Origin: Erysipelothrix larvae
GTDB lineage: Bacteria; Bacillota_I; Bacilli_A; Erysipelotrichales; Erysipelotrichaceae
DNA length: 32,000 bases
Direction of reading: 5' to 3'
Assembly: GCF_001545095.1 (NCBI RefSeq)
Contig: NZ_CP013213.1
Span: forward strand, 1,680,001-1,712,000
Made by a program: the position numbers and the translations under genes. The notes below the pieces were generated by a model that searched no databases, was not told the origin of the DNA, and was given only the letters and a program-made list of their open reading frames with translations. Below, one piece after another: positions 14,899 through 32,000 of this stretch (positions are counted from its first letter, which is position 1; the number at the start of each line of letters is the position of its first letter).

Positions 14899-15030
14899 GA
14901 GTTTGACAGCTATAATTTAATTAAGTTATCTTTGGTGCACTAGTTAGTGCGCTTTTTTGTCAATACTATTTATATTTTATGTTCCATAACGTCCCATTGA
15001 AAGGTGTAATATACCTAATAAGGAGGATCT

Positions 15031-15627
15031 TATGTATCTCAATCAAAACAAATCTCATAAAGGAATCTATCATACAATCACTCATGCCTATCGGGAAAAG
15101 CGAGAAAAAGAAAGAGCGCAATGTTAAGAATATTGGATATCTTGACGACCTTAAACTCCAATACGACGATCCAATCGCACATTTCAAACAAGTCGTTAAG
15201 GACATGACACTTGAAAAAACTAAAGATACCAAGGTTGTACTAACGATTGATAAGAGTGCAATCATAGATACCAATTCACCGAACATTAACGTCAAAAGTG
15301 CGTTTATCTATAAAATGATTCATACATTAGGGCTTCCAGATATTCTTGGGTAAAATTCAACGTAAACATAAAGCTGAGTATAGATTTATTGATATTCAAC
15401 GGTTCTTAACGTATAACCGTATCTTAACCCCTTCCAGCATCCAAGAAGCCTATAATCATAAGACCTCATAGATTCATTCCTTTGATTTAGAAACTACATG
15501 ATGTCTACCGTTTCTTAAGTGTTTTGACACCCTATAAGGATGCTTTAATCGAACACATGAATAAATCAATTGTTGACACCTTTGGTAAATGACATGTTTC
15601 ACGCACCTATTATGACTGTACCAATAA
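15031..15627 (+). pseudogene. IS1634-family (DDE) transposase, N-terminal ~200 codons, multiple frameshifts and stops
   Basis: Pieces read in three frames: MYLNQNKSHKGIYHTITHAYREKREK / NVKNIGYLDDLKLQYDDPIAHFKQV... / GKIQRKHKAEYRFIDIQRFLTYNRILTPSS / HDVYRFLSVLTPYKDALIEHMNKS...TYYDCTN. The fragment ends right after the YYDCTN catalytic-Asp motif. Confidence 0.7.
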
Positions 15628-15977: not shown

Positions 15978-16544
15978 TTAGCGTTCAACTATTCGAGATT
16001 TATACCTTTTACTCAACATTTTTCGTGCCACAACCGAGATATCTTGATTTTCAACAAACATTTTATTTCTGTTTTTTCCGATGTACAGGTTTTCTATTGG
16101 GCTTCTTCTAAGTAATGCTGAGTAATAACTTGAAGCCAAATCTGAGTAATCTTTGTTTTGGTTGTGAATCAGAAAAATCAATAACATTTGCTCACTCTCT
16201 GCAATATAATCGAGTGATTCTGAAGTGTCATTATACTGATCCGTCATATGTCCAATTCTTCTCAATATTATATTTTCAAACTGATCTGGGAACATGCAGT
16301 AGGCCGCATTTAATATTTCAAAGTATGTTCCACTTCTATCTTCAATATTTGACTCTAAATAGTGGTTTAACGCTTCCAATTCAGAATCCCTTATTTCTTT
16401 TGTGCGAAATTGAATCAGTGAGTGAAAAGTAAATTGCTCTTTATCAGAAAAAGCACTATTTCGAATAACGTTGATTATTACAAGTGCATTAATTAATCCA
16501 ATCGGGAACAATAATACAGCCAGTAAATTTAAGACGTAGCTCAA
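15978..16544 (-). CDS. Hypothetical protein with N-terminal TM anchor and ~150-aa soluble domain
   Basis: 188-aa ORF with a TTG start and no clear RBS, so the start is uncertain. I recognise no motif. Confidence 0.45.
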   Translation of the reverse strand: MSYVLNLLAVLLFPIGLINALVIINVIRNSAFSDKEQFTFHSLIQFRTKEIRDSELEALNHYLESNIEDRSGTYFEILNAAYCMFPDQFENIILRRIGHMTDQYNDTSESLDYIAESEQMLLIFLIHNQNKDYSDLASSYYSALLRRSPIENLYIGKNRNKMFVENQDISVVARKMLSKRYKSRIVER

Positions 16545-16579
16545 ATAAACACATATAGTAGTTAATGAAAATACAGTGA

Positions 16580-16918
16580 TTAAACAAACTGATCCCGAAC
16601 TTTGTTGATATTTCTTCCAAATACATTTCTTTCTTCAAAGATACTTCTTTGAGCAATGATCCCTAAAGGATTTATTCTAAAAGGTTTGAAATATAGAGGC
16701 CCTATCTTCCTGACTCCTCCCTCAAATAACCATAGTGAAAAATCATCAATATTAGAGATGACCACTGCACCAACGAGTGTTAACATCAATACAATGACCA
16801 GTAAAACGAACACTAAAGTCCAGGGATTTAATTCTCCTCTAAAACTATCAATGATTTGGAGCATAATAAAACCATCAATCACTCCCAGAAAAATATATAA
16901 CATCTTTTTATTATTCAT
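16580..16918 (-). CDS. Hypothetical 2-TM membrane protein (candidate immunity protein of cassette C)
   Basis: 112-aa ORF with two hydrophobic helices, directly downstream of leader-peptide copy C. GGAGG-like RBS (gataggtggagg). Confidence 0.5.
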   Translation of the reverse strand: MNNKKMLYIFLGVIDGFIMLQIIDSFRGELNPWTLVFVLLVIVLMLTLVGAVVISNIDDFSLWLFEGGVRKIGPLYFKPFRINPLGIIAQRSIFEERNVFGRNINKVRDQFV

Positions 16919-16944: not shown

Positions 16945-17290
16945 TTAATACCAGACTCTATTGTTCCAAACATATGACACCGCCAAACTAACTTCTAGAC
17001 CTGCAATAAAACCCCCTATAAAACCGCCCAGAAATGACGCAATTTTAATTACTGGTGTACCAAATTTTAACAGCAGCCCAACTATATCCATAATCACCAA
17101 CTTGTGCCTATGATTTGGAGAATAAAGCCCATGACCACCCAGCCGCTACTCGTGCCTTTGATACATTAATACTCCAACTATTCCATACTCCTTCTAAATT
17201 ATTACAAAAGTTTGTTGCGTCTGCTCCATCCAAATACATCATTTCTTCCTGTTCTAATTCAACATAATTCATAGGTAAACCTTATTCCAT
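16945..17290 (-). pseudogene. Double-glycine-leader peptide paralog C (disrupted)
   Basis: ATGGAATAA (ME-stop) occupies the position where copies A and B read MELGLP. Two sub-ORFs remain. 17108-17272 encodes MNYVELEQEEMMYLDGA-DATNFCNNLEGVWNSWSINVSKARVAAGWSWALFSKS (54 aa). 16945-17091 encodes MDIVGLLLKFGTPVIKIASFLGGFIGGFIAGLEVSLAVSYVWNNRVWY (48 aa), in another frame. Confidence 0.6.
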
Positions 17291-17375
17291 AATTTTAGCT
17301 CCTTTTTCTATCATTTCAAGAGTATACGACAGTTTTAGACGTACACTGATAATTGTGCCACAGTTTGAATCAAGC

Positions 17376-18179
17376 TTACATTTTAGTATTAATTTCTTCC
17401 AATTTGGATTTGTATACGAGCCATCTTATTTGAAAGAAAGGAAAATCGCTGAATAATAAGCTAAAGATTGCTGCAGGAATATAATCAAAATAGAGCAAAG
17501 GAAAAGTCAAGCACAAAAGTACGACCGCTAAAATACAATACTTTAGGACTAGCACATAAACTAATTTATTATTCTTCCACTCCTTTGATAAGCGAAAGCA
17601 CTCATAAAAAGAAAGTAGTGTATAACTTCCTAATGTGAGATAGACTAGTAAATTATCAACTGATATTGCTGCTAAAACAATAACAAGTAGCCAAAACTTT
17701 ACTTGACGAATTTTCTTTGTTTGTTTGCTTTCAAAAAAAATGTCAGTACCATGCTCCGTGATAACGTTACACGCTTGACTAAAAGACTCTTCACTAATTT
17801 TATTCATCGATTCAATAAGACGGATATGAAACACTAATGACATGATGATCAAGAAGCACTGTATTCCATAGAATAGAAGTGTACCTAACTGATGGAAATA
17901 ATTTAGGCACATATAGAAAACAAGCAACAGACTCAGTAAAAAAACACTTGATTTTTCGTATGGCTTACCTCGGTTTAAGGATCTAATTGCGTCCATTGGT
18001 AACAAAATAAGCGTATAGAAAATCAAAGATAAAAATGGTAAATATGAAATTAATAGGCTCAGTATATTCATAGGTTCAAAAACAAATATGTAATTAGCAC
18101 TATAAATAAATGAACCAATAAAACAAATAAACATCAGATTTGCTATTTGTTTCGTAAATCGTATCGTCATGAAGACCAA
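17376..18179 (-). CDS. Hypothetical polytopic (~7 TM) membrane protein
   Basis: 267-aa hydrophobic ORF. The likely start is the ATG at 18170 (MTIRFTKQ). Its first ~20 codons are duplicated at 15626-15698. Confidence 0.6.
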   Translation of the reverse strand: MVFMTIRFTKQIANLMFICFIGSFIYSANYIFVFEPMNILSLLISYLPFLSLIFYTLILLPMDAIRSLNRGKPYEKSSVFLLSLLLVFYMCLNYFHQLGTLLFYGIQCFLIIMSLVFHIRLIESMNKISEESFSQACNVITEHGTDIFFESKQTKKIRQVKFWLLVIVLAAISVDNLLVYLTLGSYTLLSFYECFRLSKEWKNNKLVYVLVLKYCILAVVLLCLTFPLLYFDYIPAAIFSLLFSDFPFFQIRWLVYKSKLEEINTKM

Positions 18180-18399
18180 CCCACTGTAATCAGACTTATC
18201 TAATAAACCTGACCCGTATTTCCTTTCTTTTTTATTTCAAGCTAAACCTAGTAAAATTGAACCGTGAATGTGTACTTTTGTTTACCTTTGAATCTTAACT
18301 ACCCTCAGGAGAGTATTGCCACTTCTTACTACTGTAATTGCAATTAGCTAAAATAAATCTTTGAACTTTTCTCTCACGCTAGGATCCTTTTATGTTTTA
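18115..18399. repeat. Copy 2 of internal ~270-bp direct repeat
   Basis: See 15621-15885. This copy runs from inside the 5' end of the 267-aa gene to the first codons of the IS110 transposase stub. Confidence 0.8.
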
Positions 18400-18487
18400 C
18401 ATCGGAATCGATATTGCTACGTGTAAGCACTATGTCGCTGTTATTGACCAACATGGAGAAGTATTTGGTGAACTACCCGCCACTTAG
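18392..18487 (+). pseudogene. IS110-family transposase, N-terminal 31 codons only
   Basis: MFYIGIDIATCKHYVAVIDQHGEVFGELPAT-stop. IGIDIAK-type N-terminus carrying the first Asp of the DEDD fold, then truncated. Confidence 0.6.
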
Positions 18488-18610
18488 CATACGCTCGAAG
18501 TGGGGGCTTCTTGAGAACAAAGCAAACTTAATCGACATTCCTGTCGACCAGCGGTCACTTTTATTTATCAAGCTATCCCCGATGTCCCATCGGTTTATTG
18601 TTTTTCATTC
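18488..18610 (-). other. Candidate IS200/IS605-type right end (omega-RNA/reRNA scaffold remnant) downstream of the tnpB stub
   Basis: Non-coding stretch immediately 3' of the TnpB fragment. It contains short stem-loops (ccgatgggacatcgg) and abuts the IS110 stub. Confidence 0.3.
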
Positions 18611-18898
18611 TTAGGATTGATGCGAAAGTCTTAATCCTTCATTCAGGATATTGATGCTTGCATTCAAATCACGATCGTGTGTGATGTTGCAGTTGGAACA
18701 TTCCCATTGACGTATCTCCAGTGGTTTCTTTCCATCATTATGTCCACAGTGAGAACACAGCTGACTGGACGGATACCAGGAATCAATCTTGATTACTTTT
18801 TTCCCATACCAACCGGCTTTGTATTCGAGCTTTGCCACAAATTGTGACCACGACACATCTGCAATACTCTTTGAAACCCGCTTCGTCTTCATCATTTT
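18611..18898 (-). pseudogene. TnpB (IS605 OrfB) C-terminal fragment
   Basis: MMKTKRVSKSIADVSWSQFVAKLEYKAGWYGKKVIKIDSWYPSSQLCSHCG...WECSNCNITHDRDLNASINI. This is the zinc ribbon (CxxC...CxxC) and RuvC-III DRDxNA motif only; the first ~300 codons are absent. Confidence 0.75.
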
Positions 18899-19271
18899 TT
18901 TCCAAACTCTTTATGTCATTTTGGATTGTTTGGATGGATGCGTTCAAATCTGACAATTTCTCTTTCTTTTATTCCAATGATTTTTGAGTTGATGTTGTCG
19001 AATAAGTTTCACTCTCTACCTTACTTTTATACCCAATTTTTCCCTTGATTAATGCTTGTTCACTTTCTATGAGCGTTGTACGAACCAGCCGATCTCGCTA
19101 TTGCTTCCCCTCTCCCACACCTCACGATGTGAAACTTGCAGGTCGCTATCAATTCGCGATAGATACGCTCCTTGGGACTTTCACCTAAGATATATGACTG
19201 CCTGTCATACTATAAAAATGAGAGATCCTAATTCAAAATATCTCCCAACTCTTATAAAGTACTGCTACTAC

Positions 19272-19451
19272 TTAACTCTTTGAAGAATTTGAGAGCCACG
19301 TTACAAAAGCAACAATAAACACTATCCCAAATGCGATAAAAGAATAAATAGTTCCAAATTTGAAAATAACTTCATTTATAACAAATAATAATATCCCAAT
19401 AACTAACAATATTGTTGATTTGATTCTCTTATCCAAAACAGTATCCATCAT
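19272..19451 (-). CDS. Small 2-TM protein, candidate immunity protein of cassette A
   Basis: MMDTVLDKRIKSTILLVIGILLFVINEVIFKFGTIYSFIAFGIVFIVAFVTWLSNSSKS (59 aa). Its start overlaps the 3' end of peptide gene A by 23 nt. Confidence 0.55.
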   Translation of the reverse strand: MMDTVLDKRIKSTILLVIGILLFVINEVIFKFGTIYSFIAFGIVFIVAFVTWLSNSSKS

Positions 19452-19815
19452 TTCCGTAACTTCCAAACCAACCATCAGCGGCATCAATTCCCCATGCTAC
19501 AAAATATCCAACTGATAGTGACGCAATGCCAGCTAATCCACTAATTGTGGCTACAATCTTTTTTCTCATACTTATTGAAACACTAAAATACTTTGCTATT
19601 GCACCTGCAATACTATTCACATTATTAGTAATCCATTTTTTTGCAGCTTGTCCCTTTACTGACCATATACCAAATAAGAGTAATGCTACATCAATCCCAG
19701 CTGCAATTGCATCTCTTGAATTCCACCAATTTCTACCAAAACTCAAGCCACCATCCAAGTACATCATTTCTTCTTGTTCTAATTCAACATAATTCATCGG
19801 TAGACCTAATTCCAT
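19429..19815 (-). CDS. Double-glycine-leader peptide A (bacteriocin-like precursor), intact
   Basis: AGGAGG RBS 8 nt upstream of MELGLPMNYVELEQEEMMYLDGG, which fits the GG-leader consensus (acidic/hydrophobic pattern ending in GG). The mature part is ~105 aa with two hydrophobic, Gly/Ala-rich segments. Confidence 0.7.
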   Translation of the reverse strand: MELGLPMNYVELEQEEMMYLDGGLSFGRNWWNSRDAIAAGIDVALLLFGIWSVKGQAAKKWITNNVNSIAGAIAKYFSVSISMRKKIVATISGLAGIASLSVGYFVAWGIDAADGWFGSYGNDGYCFG

Positions 19816-19926
19816 AGTCATAGCCTCCTGTTTCTACCTTTACTCAGGTTTATCTGAGTGTCACCAATCTTAATGATTGGGCCAATACTAACCCCTAACC
19901 CCTTATATTAACCAACTCCTTTAATG

Positions 19927-20162
19927 CTAGTTTTTGAAGTTCAGCAAATTAAGAACCCATTCAAGATAGGTTTCTTCTTCATAAATGATGCGTGCTTCAA
20001 TTGGCATTGATTTGAAGAGTTTTTTTCTGTGTCTTGTTTACTTGATAATTCTGTACTTTCGATTGACACCATGACTTTATATAATAGAGTATTCCCATCT
20101 GATGTTTCTTGTGAAAGTACTACAGATTCATTGGAGATAAGTTGTCCTGTTATTGTTCCATA
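19927..20162 (-). pseudogene. C-terminal ~75-codon remnant of HlyD-type bacteriocin secretion accessory protein (copy A)
   Basis: YGTITGQLISNESVVLSQETSDGNTLLYKVMVSIESTELSSKQDTEKKLFKSMPIEARIIYEEETYLEWVLNLLNFKN-stop. An in-frame stop lies just upstream. Homologous to 21192-21425. Confidence 0.6.
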
Positions 20163-20214
20163 CTAATTACTGTTTTAACGATCATTGACTTGATAATTGC
20201 GATATCAGGATCAT

Positions 20215-20688
20215 TTATAGTATCGATCTAACTATTCTTGTTAACTTGAAATATTTACGAATCAATCCCACCACGATTACCCATATTGGAAGAAGTAAAA
20301 CCAAAACCCACAACTTCCCTGTAAAGGAAGCACTTAGAATAATTAACGAAACAAAAATACCTACAATAATAGAAAACAAAATCAGACTCAAAAATCCGAA
20401 CCTCCATGAAATCAATTCATAATCTCTTGTACTGATTTCATATGCATATTTAGGGGACACACTAATATTCATATTCTTGTCTATTTTTACTTCCACAGTT
20501 TCATCACAAGGAATGTTGAAAATCTCGATTACAATGGGTGGCTGAAGATCTTCTTGAAGAATCCCACTCATGCAATCTAAAAATATTGACATCACCGATT
20601 TAAACCTATTATTAAAAATTGAGGTTTCTATAAGCAAGTTATTACCATGAATAGAATACTTATAGTTATCTGGCAAGTTAATTTTCAT
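20215..20688 (-). CDS. Hypothetical protein with C-terminal 2-TM region (candidate immunity protein of cassette B)
   Basis: 157-aa ORF. Its AGGAGG RBS overlaps the stop of peptide gene B. It has an ~85-aa soluble N-terminal domain and two C-terminal TM helices. Confidence 0.6.
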   Translation of the reverse strand: MKINLPDNYKYSIHGNNLLIETSIFNNRFKSVMSIFLDCMSGILQEDLQPPIVIEIFNIPCDETVEVKIDKNMNISVSPKYAYEISTRDYELISWRFGFLSLILFSIIVGIFVSLIILSASFTGKLWVLVLLLPIWVIVVGLIRKYFKLTRIVRSIL

Positions 20689-20697
20689 AATCTCCTC

Positions 20698-21080
20698 CTA
20701 AATCACAATTTGGTTATTTATTATATTATCAGTAACATAGTCTAAACCTAATGCAAAAATTCCTCCAACTGAAGTAAAACACCAAGCATTTCCTAATATT
20801 GCGTTTCCAACTTTACCTGACGCAACGTTAATTGTAACTCCCAATGCCCATTTTGCTGCTTTAGGAACTAAACCACTTAATTGAGGTAAATATTGCCTAA
20901 TTAGGCAGATGCAGCTTGCTTTCCCATAAACTTTATTGGAGCAAGATACCAGCAAAAAGGCGTGGCAACCGCATCAATTATTGTCGATACCCACCCTCTA
21001 GAAAACGTTAATCCTTCATCCAAGTACATCATTTCTTCTTGATCTAATTCAACATAATTCATCGGTAGACCTAATTCCAT
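20698..21080 (-). pseudogene. Double-glycine-leader peptide paralog B (frameshifted, GG changed to EG)
   Basis: MELGLPMNYVELDQEEMMYLDEG-LTFSRGWVSTIIDAVATPF, then the frame is lost at a T5 run (plus-strand A5 near 20944-20948). It continues as LLVSCSNKVYG...PKAAKWALGVTINVASGKVGNAILGNAW...NNQIVI. Confidence 0.65.
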
Positions 21081-21191
21081 AGTCATATCCTCCTGTTTCT
21101 ACCTTTACTCAGGTTAACACAAGTCTTACCAATCTTAATGATTGACCCAATACTAACCCCTAACCCCCTATATTAACCACGTCCTTTAATA

Positions 21192-21425
21192 TTAATTTCT
21201 ATAGTTAAGTAAATTAAGAACCCATTCAAGATAGGTTTCTTATTCATAAACAACCCGTGCTTCTATTGGTATTGATTTAGTCAGTTTAACTGTTTCTTTC
21301 TTGCTCGTTAATTCTGTACTTTCGATTGACACCGTGACTTTGTAAAATAGAGCATTCCCATTTGATGTTTCTTGTGAAAGTGTTCCTGAATCAATGGAAA
21401 CAAGTTGTCAAGTTATCGTTCCATA
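21192..21425 (-). pseudogene. C-terminal remnant of HlyD-type accessory protein (copy B, with internal stops)
   Basis: YGTIT-stop-QLVSIDSGTLSQETSNGNALFYKVTVSIESTELTSKKETVKLTKSIPIEARVVYE-stop-ETYLEWVLNLLNYRN. Confidence 0.6.
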
Positions 21426-21700
21426 CTTATTGCTGTTTATACCTGCAATCGCAGGATAGGTTAAATCACTCGTGATATCCTTGATATCAACTCGGACCGC
21501 CCTTACATTCATGTTTAACTTTTCTAGTCCCTCAACAAGTCCTTTTACACTTGTTTTATGTGCATCTGTTTTTATTGACTTCCCGTATCTTCATAATGGG
21601 CATTTTTCTTCTTATACGGTAATAACACAGTTGATATTACAGCTGCTGCGCAATCTGATGCATCATGTTGGTTTGTATTCTTATACTTTTTAAAACTCAT
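21426..21700 (-). pseudogene. N-terminal C39 peptidase domain remnant of a bacteriocin-processing ABC transporter
   Basis: MSFKKYKNTNQHDASDCAAAVISTVLL (the Q-x4-DC catalytic-Cys motif). After at least 2 frameshifts it reads MPIMKIREV / IKTDAHKTSVKGLVEGLEKLNMNVRAVRVDIKDITSDLTYPAIAG. It is fused directly to the accessory-protein tail. Confidence 0.65.
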
Positions 21701-22009
21701 ATATCCCCTTGTCACATTTTAATGTTATTCAAAAATAATTAGTTGAATTCAAATAAGATAAACTCAATATATTTAATATCCATATGTTTAAATTCACGTT
21801 TATAACATGTCTTTATTAAATACCATCGATACCCTAAAATTGATATCAATATACTAATGATATATATTTTATATGGATATAATTCTACTTATTTTTATCA
21901 TAGTTGAAAGATTTTACTAGATTTTGCCAAAATGAATAACGCCATATAAATAAGAATAACACATATATAATTGCATTAACTATTGGGTTCATTTCATAGA
22001 GTTGAATTT

Positions 22010-22346: not shown

Positions 22347-22921
22347 TCATAAGAATACGACAGTCCTCGTCATCAACTAAGATTAACTACACTCGACAAA
22401 CCTCGTATGGAGTATCTATGTATGTCTTGGACATTCAATATGACAAAGAAGGAAACATTATTCCTAAAGTCTTAAAATTAAACCGCGAAGTTATTGAAGA
22501 AGAATCAAAGCATGATGGTTACGATTCTATTGTAACCAGTGAGATTGAAATGGAAACTCAAGAGATCATTGACGCATACCGAGGATTAGCGAAAATTGAG
22601 GATTCATTCAAAGTCTTGAAATTTGAATTTAAAGCGCGTCCAGTTTATCTTTCCAATAAAGAGCGAATTGCAAGTCATTTCCTAATCTGTGTTATCTCTT
22701 TAGTAATTATGCGCCTAATTGAAACTTTACTTGGAGATACATACTCGACGCAACGAATCGCAAACTCACTAAACAAATATCAAGCACATCCTTTTGAAGA
22801 TAACATCTATTTGCTCAATTATTATGATGAAGTACTTGGGTGTTTATCGAAGATTTATACCATAGATTTAAATAAGAAATATCAAGAAAGAAACGAATTA
22901 AAAAATATTTTCAAAATCTAA
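22347..22921 (+). pseudogene. IS1634-family transposase, C-terminal ~190 codons
   Basis: ...HDGYDSIVTSEIEMETQEIIDAYRGLAKIEDSFKVLKFEFKARPVYLSNKERIASHFLICVISLVIMRLIE. This is the typical IS4/IS1634 C-terminal Y-R-E/K region. The frame is open from 22347 and the first ATG is at 22418. Confidence 0.7.
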
Positions 22922-26134: not shown

Positions 26135-26836
26135 CTATTCCTTCCACTTATACCCAACCCCACGCACTGTTACTAGGTTTTTTCGTCCTAATTTATCTCT
26201 TAGCCGTTTAATATGGACATCGACCGTACGTCCTTCATCCTTCTCTGAAATACTTGTATCGTTGAGTGCACGAATGATCTCATGGCGTGATAAAACACGG
26301 TTTTTGTTTCGTATAAAGAACTCTAGAAATTCAAATTCACGGATTGTAAGTGAAATCTCTTGTCCTTCTTTTGTGACAGTATGACTGTGAACATTAAGAC
26401 AAACACCGTCCGATTCAATGTAACGGGTCCCTAAGTTACGGATTGTCATAGTACGTTTGATTTTTTCCCAATTCAGGGTTTCACTGCGGCTTAGGTCAAC
26501 AATCGTATCAACTTTTGCAGTGAGTGCATTCATTTCTAGTGTGTCCTTGACCTGTGATGTACACAAAATGGTACAGATATACGGACGAACTGCTTTGATT
26601 GCGCCAAGCATTTGTACACCTTTCATAAACTCTAGGTCATCATAGGCAATGACTAAAGTTACTGAATGATTAATACAATATGCAATGGCATCGAGAGGGT
26701 CTTTTAGCCGATGGACATCATAGGATGTGTGCGATAATTTATGGTAAATGCGATTCATGCCTTCACAGGCACCGTATACGGTTAGTATCAACAGGGGTAT
26801 CTCCTTTATGTTTAAATCTCGAGTCATTTTATGCAT
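26135..26836 (-). CDS. Orphan OmpR-type winged-helix regulator with degenerate receiver domain
   Basis: The C-terminus is a clear trans_reg_C domain (LTIREFEFLEFFIRNKNRVLSRHEI...VDVHIKRLRDKL...VRGVGYKW). The N-terminal domain lacks the DD acidic pair (LLILTVYGA) and the conserved Lys. The start is uncertain (26836 or 26827). Confidence 0.75.
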   Translation of the reverse strand: MHKMTRDLNIKEIPLLILTVYGACEGMNRIYHKLSHTSYDVHRLKDPLDAIAYCINHSVTLVIAYDDLEFMKGVQMLGAIKAVRPYICTILCTSQVKDTLEMNALTAKVDTIVDLSRSETLNWEKIKRTMTIRNLGTRYIESDGVCLNVHSHTVTKEGQEISLTIREFEFLEFFIRNKNRVLSRHEIIRALNDTSISEKDEGRTVDVHIKRLRDKLGRKNLVTVRGVGYKWKE

Positions 26837-27899: not shown

Positions 27900-30800
27900 T
27901 CAATCTTTTTTTGATAACCGTCTTTCTAATACTATGCAAAGCAGTCCCATGGAAATGATCAACAGATTAAAAGAATGGGTTTCAATGCCTGTATTTGGCA
28001 ATCGATTCTCTTGGTTGTTTGTATCATCGGGTTTGACTCCACCTTGAATAGAATCTGTGTCATTAGGATCTTGCGGTAGTGGTTTACCTGTGTTAGGAAG
28101 TGATGGTTTTTGTGGTTTTTCTTCAGGATCTTGTGGCAATTGTTCTTCAGGTTGGTTGGTTTCAACTAGAACGTTAATGAGATCGTATCCATCTTGGATA
28201 AGTTCGTAGAATTCTACAGAAATTTCCTCTATTGTGTAGACTATTTCTGAACCATTCATATATTGAGGAAGTCCAGAGTAAATAAAGGTCCAGACATCCC
28301 CGTTGATGATCCATACTGGATTAATATCCATAACTTCAACATCATTAGCAAAGAGTTTTAATGTAATTGAATCAGGACGTAACCCCTGTTTATCACTGTT
28401 ATCCACCCATGTCTTGGTTCCAGTTATACTTGTGAAGGATTGTCTTCGAACATTGCGGAAATTATATCCGTCTTGAATCGATTCATAGCCCTCAACACCC
28501 ACTTCTTCTACAGTGTAATCAATTGCTTGTCCTTTCGCATAGAATGGTAAATTTGTATATTCATAAGTCCAGACATCCCCGTCTTTTGAAGTCCAAGTAG
28601 GTTGGTAGTTTGTTTCCACACCATTTGCTATAAGTATAAGCTTGATGCTATCAGGTCTAAACCCTTCTACATTATGATCATCCACCCATGTCTTGGTTCC
28701 TTCGATGGTCATATAGGATGGTTCGCGGGTATTCGTGAAATCATAACCATCCTTTGTTGTGGTATAGCCATCAACTGCTACTTCTTCTACAGTGTAATCA
28801 ATTGCTTGTCCTTTCGCATAGAATGGTAAATTTGTATATTCATAAGTCCAGACATCCCCATCTTTTGAAGTCCATGTTGGTTGATAGTCTGTTTCTTCGC
28901 CATTTGCTTTGAGAATGATTTCGATGGAATCAGGTCTTGCTCCTTCACTGTTGTGGTTGTCAATCCATGTTTTGGTTCCTGAAATTGACAAGTAGGTAGG
29001 GATTCGAGTGTTGATTAGATTAAAATCTTCCTGTGTAAAGTCATATCCACTGACCCATTTCTCTGTGACTGTATATTTTATTTCTTGTCCATTAGCATAT
29101 TGTGGTAAGTTTGTATATTCATAAGTCCAGACATCTCCTTCTTTTGATGTCCATGTTGGTTGGTAGTCCGTTTCGTCACCATTTGCTTTGAGTACAAGTT
29201 CAATGCTATCTGGTCTAAACCCTTCAGAGTTGTGATTATCAACCCAGGTTTTGGTCCCTTCGATGGTTATATAGGATGGTTCATGGGTATTCGTGAAATA
29301 AAAACCATCCTGTGTTGTGGTATAACCTTCGACAGGTACTTCTTCTACAGTATAGTTGATTGCTTTTCCACCTTCCACAAATGGCAAGTCTGAGTACATG
29401 TAGGCCCATGTATTTGTATCAGTATTAAACCAGATTGGTTCAACACCTTCTACAATTTCGCCATTTGCTCTGAGGATGAGTTGAATGGAGTCTGGTCTTA
29501 ATCCTTCACTATTGTTGTTGTCAACCCATACCTTATGACCTGCTATCGTCATCTTAGATTGACTGTTTTCAAAGGTTCCAAGGAAAAGGATTTCATCATC
29601 ATCTGATGTTTCACCTAGTGTGAAGTATCTAAGATTGTTGCTGGTTAGATAGCCAAAAGGTGCTCTTTTTTCTTTAAGATAATAGGTTTGTGCTTCTAGT
29701 TTTGAGATTGTAAGCATTCCTTTTTCATTTGTGATGAGAGGGTCTGTTCCTTCTGGGTCAACTTGATATATTTCTTCATCTCTTATGACCACTTTTTTGA
29801 AGTTTGTTATTTGAACGGAGTTTGCATCACAAGGTTCTCCAGTACACATGAACAGTTCGAATTCTGCATTAGGGAGTGTTACGGTTTCATCATCTGCATC
29901 AACCTTTATCAATGATACAGTTCGAGGTGTATTTTCTACCATGATATGATTAATTATTTTGCTTGATGTAGTGAATGGCGTTATTGCTTTGGATCCTTCG
30001 ACACGATAATAACCATCACTTTGTGTAACTTCAAGCAGATAGTAATTACCGGTGGGAAGTCCACTGAGAATTAAGGTTCCATTTCCACCAGTTTCTACTT
30101 GTTTGAATGATCCGCTATTTGAATAGACGTATTTATTACCATCTTTATTGAAGTTCATTTGGACGTTGTCTGAGGTTCTATACACTTCAAAGACTGTATT
30201 AGAAATCAGTCCTTCATACGATTCGACACCTTCAGTGTAGGTGTTCTCATACAATGAATCCGATTTATATACCACAACATCTCCTTTAGTCGCAGTAAGT
30301 TTTATGCTGTCATTCCAGAAGTTATCTTGCTTCTTTTCGTAAGTGAATTTTTCACATCCGGTCTCAATATTTACCCGATTGGTTACATAGGGTTCATTGA
30401 TGGTTTCAAGGTCTTGGTATTTAATCCCTGTAGTTACGGTAAGTTGAAGATCATAGAGATAGGGCCCAATGTATTTGCCTTCACCATCTGTTTGAGCGTA
30501 ATAATCTATCGATTTTCGATACACTTCCGACATGTTTTCCCAGGTTTCAAGGGTATAGCTGTCGTTGTATTTCCCTACAATGATATCACTGTTTTGTTTG
30601 CCTTCTTGGTGCGCAGTTTCGATGATCTCATTGACATAATCATAGGATTGAATCATTTGATCGACAATTTCTTTATAATAAGAATAGTTAACATCCGTAT
30701 AACGGAGTCCTGTTGAACCAATTGCACCCAGGTTCATCACTAGGCGTTCACGTGTTCGTGATGGATTTTCTGGATCTGCTTCAAGGACGATTGCATACGA

Positions 30801-31802
30801 TCGGGGGGTGTTTTTAACTGCTTCAAGAACTGTATCATTACTCTTCTCTGAAGATGATAGATTTGTAAGAAGATCATATAACCGCGTTTGTTTGGAATAA
30901 GGGTAACGGATTGCAGTTGTCCCATTAAAATCATCGGAATACAGGTAGATTGGGGTTTCTAAGTTAATAATTTTTGCGTTAGCTGACGTTGTGAAAGAAA
31001 GATTTGAATCTAAGATTTCTTCGATAATCAAATCATCATATTTACTGTTTTCATAATTATCTTCAAAGTCAGTGAATTGATTTGAAAGGTAATTATTAAT
31101 GGTGATTTTCCATGTTATGGTGTTTTGATTTTGACTGTATGAATTCAGTGTCTTCCCCATTTTCACAACTTGACTTGGTTTGATGACTGAGATTGATGTT
31201 TCGGCAGTTGAGGGTTGTGTGACGTTTACTTTCGCAATCAGCTCATCATTATAGTAAAACTCTGAATGCTCTCCCACTTTATTCCCAGAAAAGTTAGCAC
31301 TTCCGTATAGTGTACCTGAGATATCTACTTTATTTTCAATCCCTTCAGTAAAGACAATCCGATAGGATAGTTTTGTATGGGTATCATCGATGGGGGTCAC
31401 AATGAGTGTTGCTTTTCCAATCACGGAGTTATCAAAGGTTAGTGTGCGTTCATGTGAAAGATTCGTAAAGGTTGTGGTATCATTTCCAACTGCTATCAAT
31501 AAGTCAAATTCGATATAATCTCCTTGATGAAATGTGTCTTTATTTTGATCGATGACTGACCACGCTAAATTGATTGATAACGTTTGTGATGTTCCCGTAT
31601 AATCAATTTCTGAAGGCCCTGTTTTGCCAGATTCATCATAGACAGTCTTGCCTGCAATTGTGATGTTCATCGAATCGATTTGGAAATCTTCCGTGACATT
31701 ATTTCCTGTTTGTGTGTCATTATTTGTATCCGCTTGAATGACCAAATTACCTACGATGAGTGTAAAAATGCAGGTAAGGATGAGAATTGATTTTTTAAGC
31801 AT
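27900..31802 (-). CDS. LPXTG-anchored surface adhesin with SpaA/prealbumin-like and five CnaB-type repeat domains
   Basis: Signal peptide MLKKSILILTCIFTLIVGNLVIQA, with an AGGAGG RBS 6 nt upstream of the ATG at 31802 (the ORF track starts at 31859). C-terminal LPNTG, hydrophobic stretch and RRLSKKD tail. Repeats of the form GTKTW(V/I)DN.N.EG.RPDSI...Y.V.E. Confidence 0.9.
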   Translation of the reverse strand: MLKKSILILTCIFTLIVGNLVIQADTNNDTQTGNNVTEDFQIDSMNITIAGKTVYDESGKTGPSEIDYTGTSQTLSINLAWSVIDQNKDTFHQGDYIEFDLLIAVGNDTTTFTNLSHERTLTFDNSVIGKATLIVTPIDDTHTKLSYRIVFTEGIENKVDISGTLYGSANFSGNKVGEHSEFYYNDELIAKVNVTQPSTAETSISVIKPSQVVKMGKTLNSYSQNQNTITWKITINNYLSNQFTDFEDNYENSKYDDLIIEEILDSNLSFTTSANAKIINLETPIYLYSDDFNGTTAIRYPYSKQTRLYDLLTNLSSSEKSNDTVLEAVKNTPRSYAIVLEADPENPSRTRERLVMNLGAIGSTGLRYTDVNYSYYKEIVDQMIQSYDYVNEIIETAHQEGKQNSDIIVGKYNDSYTLETWENMSEVYRKSIDYYAQTDGEGKYIGPYLYDLQLTVTTGIKYQDLETINEPYVTNRVNIETGCEKFTYEKKQDNFWNDSIKLTATKGDVVVYKSDSLYENTYTEGVESYEGLISNTVFEVYRTSDNVQMNFNKDGNKYVYSNSGSFKQVETGGNGTLILSGLPTGNYYLLEVTQSDGYYRVEGSKAITPFTTSSKIINHIMVENTPRTVSLIKVDADDETVTLPNAEFELFMCTGEPCDANSVQITNFKKVVIRDEEIYQVDPEGTDPLITNEKGMLTISKLEAQTYYLKEKRAPFGYLTSNNLRYFTLGETSDDDEILFLGTFENSQSKMTIAGHKVWVDNNNSEGLRPDSIQLILRANGEIVEGVEPIWFNTDTNTWAYMYSDLPFVEGGKAINYTVEEVPVEGYTTTQDGFYFTNTHEPSYITIEGTKTWVDNHNSEGFRPDSIELVLKANGDETDYQPTWTSKEGDVWTYEYTNLPQYANGQEIKYTVTEKWVSGYDFTQEDFNLINTRIPTYLSISGTKTWIDNHNSEGARPDSIEIILKANGEETDYQPTWTSKDGDVWTYEYTNLPFYAKGQAIDYTVEEVAVDGYTTTKDGYDFTNTREPSYMTIEGTKTWVDDHNVEGFRPDSIKLILIANGVETNYQPTWTSKDGDVWTYEYTNLPFYAKGQAIDYTVEEVGVEGYESIQDGYNFRNVRRQSFTSITGTKTWVDNSDKQGLRPDSITLKLFANDVEVMDINPVWIINGDVWTFIYSGLPQYMNGSEIVYTIEEISVEFYELIQDGYDLINVLVETNQPEEQLPQDPEEKPQKPSLPNTGKPLPQDPNDTDSIQGGVKPDDTNNQENRLPNTGIETHSFNLLIISMGLLCIVLERRLSKKD
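28143..29540 (-). repeat. Five tandem 279-282-bp coding repeats (CnaB-type domains)
   Basis: Unit starts at 29540, 29258, 28979, 28700 and 28421. Units 3 and 4 share an identical 79-nt run (28502-28580 = 28781-28859). Confidence 0.9.
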
Positions 31803-32000
31803 GTGCGCCTCCTGTGCTGTCTTCTGTACTTCGTTTTTCCAACAAAAAAAATCAACCAATTAATTGAAACGGAAGATTTTATTCGTGAACCTTTGCTTTA
31901 TTCTTTTGGCGAACCCCTCGCTTATCGTAATGTGTGTTTTTCAGGGTGATAAAAGGGCGTAATTCGCTTTAAACTTCTCAAACGTCGCTTACTATTTTAG

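Follow-up and report, generated by a model that had tools for sequence, protein, structure and literature searches.

What is encoded by an array of small genes, three of which open with almost the same leader, in the chromosome of Erysipelothrix larvae? The array is covered by genes annotated as 'hypothetical' (AOC36_07890-07920) and lies in a 32,000-nucleotide (nt) stretch, hereafter the window (NZ_CP013213.1, positions 1,680,001 to 1,712,000). An initial annotation had read it as three paralogous cassettes, each comprising a peptide with a double-glycine (GG) leader and a downstream membrane protein, and had suggested an undescribed effector family. The best explanation of the whole, which we consider highly probable, is a decayed GG toxin locus of the type named rtg in Streptococcus pneumoniae. 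One peptide gene (copy A) and its partner gene are intact, and two other peptide genes (copies B and C) are not; the peptides would be membrane toxins and the partners their immunity proteins.

The three leaders are on the minus strand and were rightly called near-identical. They share a 46-nt core at 17227-17272 (C), 19752-19797 (A) and 21017-21062 (B), with two, zero and one mismatches, respectively; the core had no match in 100 dinucleotide-preserving shuffles of the window, and a repeat finder returned the leaders as a 74-nt family, 85-89% identical. Copies A and B alone have further blocks in common (86% identity between 19732-20022 and 20997-21287, 83% between 20022-20175 and 21285-21438). 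These include the upstream module of ~360 nt (19816-20175 for A, 21081-21438 for B; 83-86% identical) that the initial annotation had described as containing the tail of an accessory gene, an assignment that tblastn bears out (see below). A three-way alignment agrees with this, and copy C shares with A and B its ribosome-binding site and leader and nothing further upstream. Past the leader the copies diverge strongly, as had also been claimed: BLASTP of mature cargos gave E 0.22 for A versus B and E 3 for A versus C, and the cargo of C has no detectable similarity to that of A.

The 23-amino-acid (aa) leader of A, MELGLPMNYVELEQEEMMYLDGG, is identical at 20 of 23 residues to the leader of S. 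pneumoniae RtgC. It has Y/L/M/L at -15/-12/-7/-4 and Pro at -18. The motif E-L-G-L-P occupies -22 to -18 in A and B, and is present in C, interrupted by TAA. The cleavage site is G-G in A, E-G in B (LDEG) and G-A in C. Nor is the likeness to RtgC confined to the leader; a full-length alignment of A with RtgC spans 141 columns at 40% identity (E 2e-23), and A also matches pneumococcal clusters at database E values of 1e-11 to 3e-12. The homologue search with A led to pneumococcal proteins beginning MELVLPNNYVALEQEEMMYLDGG, which are labelled 'SP_0115 family bacteriocin-like peptide' at NCBI. None of the NCBIfam hidden Markov models (HMMs) matched pneumococcal SP_0115, so that the family name must have another origin than the HMM library scanned. 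A review table equates RtgC with SP_0115, and the supplement of that review gives the peptide sequences; RtgC is also SPD_0116.

The pneumococcal rtg locus comprises RtgR (an Rgg-type regulator), the RtgS pheromone, RtgA, RtgB and a number of GG peptides whose signal sequences are strongly conserved (Wang et al. 2020, mBio, PMC7018657). RtgA is an ATP-binding cassette (ABC) transporter that contains a peptidase, and RtgB is its accessory protein, and secretion of RtgC and RtgG by RtgAB has been demonstrated (PMC7018657). The RtgG leader has Y/L/M/L at the same four positions as that of A, and the -22 to -18 motif, including Pro(-18), promotes secretion through RtgAB (PMC7018657). Because both leader and cargo match RtgC, the E. 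larvae peptides are, by sequence, rtg GG peptides and belong to a family already described. The opposite view, an undescribed GG-leader effector family with three working toxin/immunity cassettes, could draw on the score of A against PF10439 Bacteriocin_IIc (14.2 bits, E 0.044, below the gathering cut-off of 27.1; B and C unmatched), on the lack of any NCBIfam match and on the 'hypothetical' labels of the E. larvae genes. It is contradicted by the existence of the NCBI family name, and is already refuted by the RtgC match and by the pseudogene state of two of the three peptide genes and of the transporter; we give it next to no credence.

The leader had been taken as a GG export signal tied to C39-peptidase transporters, and this holds well beyond E. 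larvae. None of the outcomes that the initial annotation had named as fatal to its reading was seen: the precursors matched no well-characterised non-secreted family, homologous loci do sit beside C39 transporters, and the leader is conserved in other genomes. A scan of one genome per species found 33 loci with an rtg-type leader, in Streptococcus, Helcococcus, Facklamia, Marinilactibacillus, Natronobacillus, Proteiniclasticum, Solobacterium, Stoquefichus, other Erysipelotrichales and the Bacillus-group genera Neobacillus, Niallia and Rossellomorea. At 25 of these 33 loci, the peptide genes with this leader (up to three per related locus) are adjoined by a ~740-aa RtgA-like C39/ABC transporter, an open reading frame (ORF) of ~155-185 aa and an accessory gene. 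The RtgA-like transporters are 61-81% identical to the streptococcal one and are split in three loci; the rest of the 33 loci are mostly cut by contig ends or are orphan-like streptococcal loci. Rgg-like helix-turn-helix (HTH) genes (42-43% identity) occur in the streptococcal loci only, and one related variant locus has a histidine kinase and a LytTR regulator in place of Rgg. The ~155-185-aa ORF lies between the transporter and accessory genes in nearly all RtgA-type loci (e.g., L002 7994-8461, L024 6542-7009 and L040 10817-11293, with about 22 other loci); it is 43-66% identical across genera, belongs to no Pfam family, and may be a third exporter component.

In E. larvae the exporter is represented by remnants, which were found by translating the ORFs of 36 fetched loci and searching them against the window by tblastn (Table 1). 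The C39 remnant lies in two frames (residues 2-31 at 21694-21605, residues 41-93 at 21575-21426), keeps the catalytic-cysteine Q...C motif QHDASDCAAAV, and is joined to the first copy of the accessory tail, which has an in-frame TAA near its end. From these matches it follows that a deletion took ~650 transporter codons, the ~160-aa ORF and ~365 accessory codons. The second copy of the accessory tail makes up most of the ~360-nt module ahead of A. Pfam scans found no intact transporter in the 32-kb window.

Copy A is an uninterrupted ORF from its MEL start and, with the 59-aa partner, forms the sole intact peptide cassette of the three. The same pair recurs in a metagenomic contig (L001), in which a peptide 92% identical to A adjoins a protein 86% identical to the partner. 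More broadly, each of the 12 RtgC-like genes examined in other genera is followed by an abutting or overlapping membrane ORF of 59-99 aa. These partner ORFs have similar topology and no evident sequence similarity across genera; most have two hydrophobic segments, and across these and the other delivery contexts given below a crude scan called one in L002, L040 and L043. In two metagenomic contigs, L044 (8685-9528) and L045 (861-1704), the gene for P0004, a peptide 53% identical to A, comes directly after a 158-aa ORF and overlaps it. This ORF, itself preceded by a MarR-like HTH gene, encodes a C39 peptidase domain and nothing else; it is either the stump of a transporter or an independent leader peptidase.

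The initial annotation had counted three cassettes with mature products of ~105 aa. This stands for A and fails for B and C; that these two, the partner gene of C and the transporter are pseudogenes had been missed. Copy B has a one-base frameshift near 20904-20906 and a premature stop at 20901-20903, beyond which the sequence continues in another frame. Repaired by one frameshift, it is 62% identical over 126 aa to the intact 127-aa orthologue P0179 (E 3e-56), which matches the RtgC-family profile described below at E 1.8e-9. Copy C has two stops, TAA at 17282-17284 (codon 3 from its MEL start) and TAG at 17108-17110, and its frame shifts before the segment 16945-17100. Its repaired product is 44% identical end to end (E 1e-20) to a 107-aa peptide, ending ...WNNRVYY, from a Streptococcus metagenome-assembled genome (L018:6248-6571). 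The claim that each copy is followed by a membrane protein is correct insofar as the ORFs are present, but the 112-aa and 188-aa ORFs after C are one broken 313-aa gene, since they fall in the same 90% cluster as the intact 313-aa protein P0031 of a relative. Apart from A and its partner, the genes still open are those for the 157-aa protein, a possible immunity partner of B, and the 267-aa protein. Helcococcus bovis (L004 850-1229) also has a frameshifted B orthologue, split into ORFs of 75 aa and 46 aa; B-type cargo would then have been broken independently in two genera, unless the split is an assembly error.

Might cassette A nonetheless be a working weapon that relies on a compatible C39 ABC transporter from another part of the genome? 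The intactness of A and its partner, their conservation in the related metagenomic contig, and the cross-use between the ComAB and BlpAB transporters described in a review would fit such a reading. However, ComAB and BlpAB do not accept rtg leaders in pneumococcus (PMC7018657), where the experiments concern RtgC and RtgG, no transporter is found in the window, and the neighbouring cassettes are decaying. Continued export of A is therefore unlikely in our judgment, if worth bearing in mind; because the transporter is gone, A is probably not exported unless such a compatible transporter exists.

What the peptides do is suggested by where their cargo occurs outside GG peptides. A profile built from 17 members of the family matched 620 of 1.84 billion representative proteins at E ≤ 1e-3. 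These were mostly GG-leader peptides of ~105-140 aa, among them a sister leader type (...LVMPSNYAVMDEEEMMYVEGG). Taken by itself, the cargo region (profile positions 23/26-125) also matched the extreme C-termini of Rhs proteins, at E 1e-9 to 2e-13. The Rhs forms P0171 (1136 aa), P0173 (499 aa), P0183 (616 aa) and P0083 (306 aa) all have RHS/YD repeats, and in all of them TIGR03696 Rhs_assc_core ends 1-4 residues ahead of the cargo match. The RtgC-type cargo thus sits exactly in the variable C-terminal slot of Rhs/YD-repeat polymorphic toxins, as these are described in PMC3482391. About ten Sec-signal proteins of 198-265 aa (P0075, P0076 and others) consist of a signal peptide, a linker region and then the cargo domain, and in a Weissella soli form (P0196) the domain stands behind a different N-domain. 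Mature A aligns end to end with P0083 (E 5e-11) and P0123 (E 1e-11) in BLASTP with compositional adjustment; its pairwise identity to the Rhs and Sec C-termini is 26-34%. In an alignment of 13 cargo-only sequences, N9, D19, G80, A84, D88, D91 and Y102 are invariant, and the motifs WWNS and NGY-F nearly so. No Pfam or NCBIfam model matched the RtgC-type domain.

The sequences are membrane-like, low in complexity and of modest pairwise identity, and the likeness of the cargo to the Rhs and Sec C-termini could be a compositional artefact of hydrophobic Gly/Ala-rich helices. That is very improbable, given the library-wide E values obtained from the cargo region alone and the BLASTP values obtained with compositional adjustment. 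The domain edges also coincide exactly, in that the GG site or the Rhs core immediately precedes the domain and the C-terminus closes it; the invariant or nearly invariant positions include polar ones (WWNS, D19, D88, D91, NGY-F); and the same kind of partner lies downstream. Judged on these alignments, the RtgC cargo is homologous to the C-terminal domains delivered by Rhs and Sec proteins.

The downstream partner is indeed found in all of the delivery contexts read. It is a 62-aa two-transmembrane (TM) ORF after the Rhs forms (L037 and L042; uncalled in L042), a 74-aa membrane ORF after the Sec form (L043), an 83-aa two-TM ORF after the W. soli form (L038), and likewise a small membrane ORF after the variant-leader form (L040). 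In L042 (1-9650), the 1136-aa Rhs protein with the RtgC-like C-terminal domain adjoins agr-like quorum-sensing genes (AgrB, a LytTR regulator and a histidine kinase).

The signature of polymorphic toxins (Zhang et al. 2012, PMC3482391) is a single C-terminal domain carried on several trafficking modules, with a small partner gene adjacent. The RtgC-type domain is carried on GG, Sec, Rhs and Weissella modules, and the small membrane ORF downstream of it is a putative immunity gene. This accords with the logic proposed by the initial annotation, a conserved export head with a variable payload and a membrane partner, the payload recurring as an Rhs C-terminal domain. We read the cargo as a membrane-targeting toxin because the same domain, with the same kind of partner, occurs at Rhs C-termini and on Sec-signal proteins. 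On balance we favor the view that rtg peptides are polymorphic membrane toxins, with an uncatalogued domain of ~105 aa and a dedicated small membrane immunity protein. We lean equally towards its corollary that the domain has at least three delivery routes in Bacillota: export by an RtgA-type transporter behind a GG leader, a Sec signal followed by a linker, and the Rhs C-terminus. In the accessible part of the toxin catalogue of PMC3482391, the sole pore-forming entry is Tox-WTIP, a different two-helix domain.

The peptides might instead be secreted signals or colonisation factors like other pneumococcal GG peptides (CSP, BriC and VP1), with the membrane proteins serving as receptors or being unrelated. 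The function of rtg peptides is formally unknown and the sole phenotype is that an rtg-active strain colonises with an advantage, both of which leave room for this alternative. It is nevertheless improbable, since a hydrophobic cargo of ~105 aa is far above the size of known pheromones, the toxin slot at the Rhs C-terminus is filled by the same domain, and a small membrane ORF is tightly coupled to it in each context read.

In an intact locus the ~740-aa RtgA-type transporter, acting with the RtgB-type protein of the HlyD family, recognises the 23-aa leader, as shown in pneumococcus, cleaves after Gly-Gly and exports the cargo. If rtg peptides are membrane toxins, the cargo, predicted to be helical with Gly/Ala/Ser-rich hydrophobic segments, would insert into the membrane of the target cell, and the small two-TM partner would neutralise it in the membrane of the producer. 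In E. larvae, a deletion taking nearly all of the transporter and accessory genes together with the ~160-aa ORF would have come first, and a duplication would then have placed the accessory tail, spacer and leader ahead of A. If A is not exported, the present locus would be at most an immunity-keeping remnant, like those of pneumococci that lack a functional RtgAB; retention of the partner against neighbors is plausible, if speculative.

Several points weigh against reading the locus as a decayed rtg-type toxin system. No antimicrobial activity has been demonstrated for any rtg peptide, and the authors left the function undetermined (PMC7018657). The membrane-protein calls are weakened by having been made with a crude hydropathy script. 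A structure model of A has five helices and is weak (pLDDT 61.6 with 12 sequences; pLDDT 68.2 and pTM 0.45 with 29); Foldseek against the PDB gave no match at E < 4, and a profile search of PDB sequences found no solved relative. No homologue of the 157-aa or the 267-aa protein was detected among the fetched loci by tblastn with the locus ORFs, which makes their roles guesses. Finally, neither tblastn with the locus ORFs nor Pfam scans found an Rgg/SHP regulator homologue in the island, and since the window has no such regulator the label rtg is used here for leader, cargo and transporter type only.

Compared with the pneumococcal rtg locus, the E. larvae locus has in common the leader, the full-length cargo homology of A, a downstream small membrane protein, and several peptides with one leader and different cargos. 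It also shares a pattern of loss in which the transporter often disappears and the peptide genes stay; a functional RtgAB is present in 17% of pneumococcal strains (83% are without), and the peptide genes are kept by most (PMC7018657). It differs in its host, which belongs to the Erysipelotrichia, in having no RtgR or RtgS in the island, in a transporter of which a C39 stub, joined to the accessory tail, is left, and in that the cargo types of B and C are not among the four published rtg sequences compared. With class II bacteriocins (Blp pneumocins, CibAB, lactococcin A) and class II microcins (colicin V), the rtg type shares a GG leader that is cut by a C39 ABC transporter acting with an accessory protein, a hydrophobic Gly-rich cargo, and a small membrane immunity gene, putative here, directly downstream. 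Unlike their typical cargo of 30-60 aa, the cargo here is ~105 aa, and the leader has an extra N-terminal recognition motif; A falls below the Bacteriocin_IIc threshold, and killing by the rtg type is putative. Unlike the Rhs toxins, which share the domain and the small membrane ORF next to it, the E. larvae domain lies behind a GG leader and not in an Rhs shell.

The 'hypothetical' genes AOC36_07890-07920 can accordingly be re-annotated as a decayed rtg-like bacteriocin island with one intact peptide/partner pair. The rtg leader with its RtgA-type exporter, described only for pneumococcus in the literature found, is a conserved module across several Bacillota orders, and the presence of the RtgC cargo with a membrane partner in the Rhs toxin slot provides independent genomic support for the unproven toxin role of rtg peptides. 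No publication linking rtg peptides with Rhs toxins was found, although literature coverage was incomplete and this is weak evidence of absence. Should the proposed reading be true, rtg loci would be polymorphic toxin systems that traffic via a peptidase-containing ABC transporter, the open question of rtg peptide function would be answered, and the RtgAB-type exporter/leader pair would reach far past streptococci, into Erysipelothrix, Helcococcus, Facklamia and Bacillus-group taxa.

Table 1. Features of the E. larvae island, with window positions, strand, and basis or remarks.
Broken 313-aa membrane-protein gene, three predicted TM, putative partner of C	15978-16918	-	Now two ORFs (112 aa and 188 aa), not in the same frame
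Copy C, pseudogene, second cargo family, ~107 aa, ends ...WNNRVWY	16945-17290	-	Frame translation
267-aa polytopic membrane protein, intact, ~6 hydrophobic segments	17376-18179	-	Directly upstream of C; no Pfam/NCBIfam family match
TnpB C-terminal fragment (IS200/IS605, RNA-guided nuclease family)	18611-18895	-	PF07282 E 4e-27; NF038281 positions 272-360 of 360
59-aa two-TM protein, putative immunity	19272-19451	-	23-nt overlap with 3' end of A; two hydrophobic segments
Copy A, AOC36_07915 ('hypothetical protein'), RtgC/SP_0115 family, intact	19429-19815	-	128 aa = 23-aa leader + 105-aa cargo
Accessory-protein tail, second, more degraded copy, last ~80 codons (RtgB/ComB-like, HlyD-family)	19930-20174	-	tblastn in two frames, residues ~370-450, 25 loci
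157-aa protein AOC36_07920, intact, hydrophobic C-terminal region, downstream of B	20215-20688	-	No Pfam/NCBIfam match
Copy B, pseudogene, divergent RtgC-superfamily GG peptide	20698-21080	-	Three-frame translation
Accessory-protein C-terminal tail, first copy, residues ~365-450 of ~450	21195-21494	-	tblastn E 1e-22 to 5e-27
Transporter N-terminus remnant, C39 residues ~1-93 of ~740	21426-21706	-	tblastn, transporters from ~25 loci
IS1634-family transposase C-terminal fragment	22418-22921	+	NF033559 E 2.6e-30, positions 335-455 of 483

The island that holds the array spans ~14.85-23.1 kb of the window (~8 kb), is flanked by pgk and a copper-ATPase (CopA) gene, and has a GC content of 31-36%, versus 37-41% in the flanks. 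Pgk, enolase, CopA and RecQ encoded in the window are identical to E. larvae proteins. Its right-hand, upstream edge is formed by the IS1634 fragment, and the TnpB fragment lies between cassette A and the 267-aa gene. At the left edge, two ORFs at 14979-15471 (+) are perhaps IS1634 N-terminus-like, and no model or plasmid sequence matched them. The idea that the island lies inside one split IS1634 element is unsupported, a recognisable fragment being present at the right-hand side only. The inverted repeat of 16 nt at 14900/23010 is no more than expected by chance and has no extension, promoter and terminator scans gave background level only, and none of the ten island proteins scored above threshold against Pfam or NCBIfam.

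Within the island, a direct repeat (15612-15883/18106-18396) is 94% identical over 127 nt, with weaker flanks, and spans the first ~25 codons of the 267-aa gene together with its upstream region. The copy at 15.6 kb reads MTIRFTKQIVNLMFICFIGTVIIGA-stop, which makes it a truncated remnant of another array unit. A minor similarity was seen in A itself, residues 65-121 of which align with positions 244-301 of 313 of NF053698 'Bfe1 family T6SS effector' (E 0.053; 13 bits versus a 315-bit cut-off); this match to a type VI secretion system model is at most a lead and not a relationship, and might hint at a further delivery route in Bacteroidales.

Outside the island and unrelated to the locus, the window encodes an OmpR-type regulator at 26135-26836 (-), with a weak receiver-domain match (E 0.0014, under the Pfam cut-off), and a 1319-aa surface protein at 27900-31859 (-) with five Cna-B repeats and SpaA-like domains; a phosphorylase-family gene separates the two.

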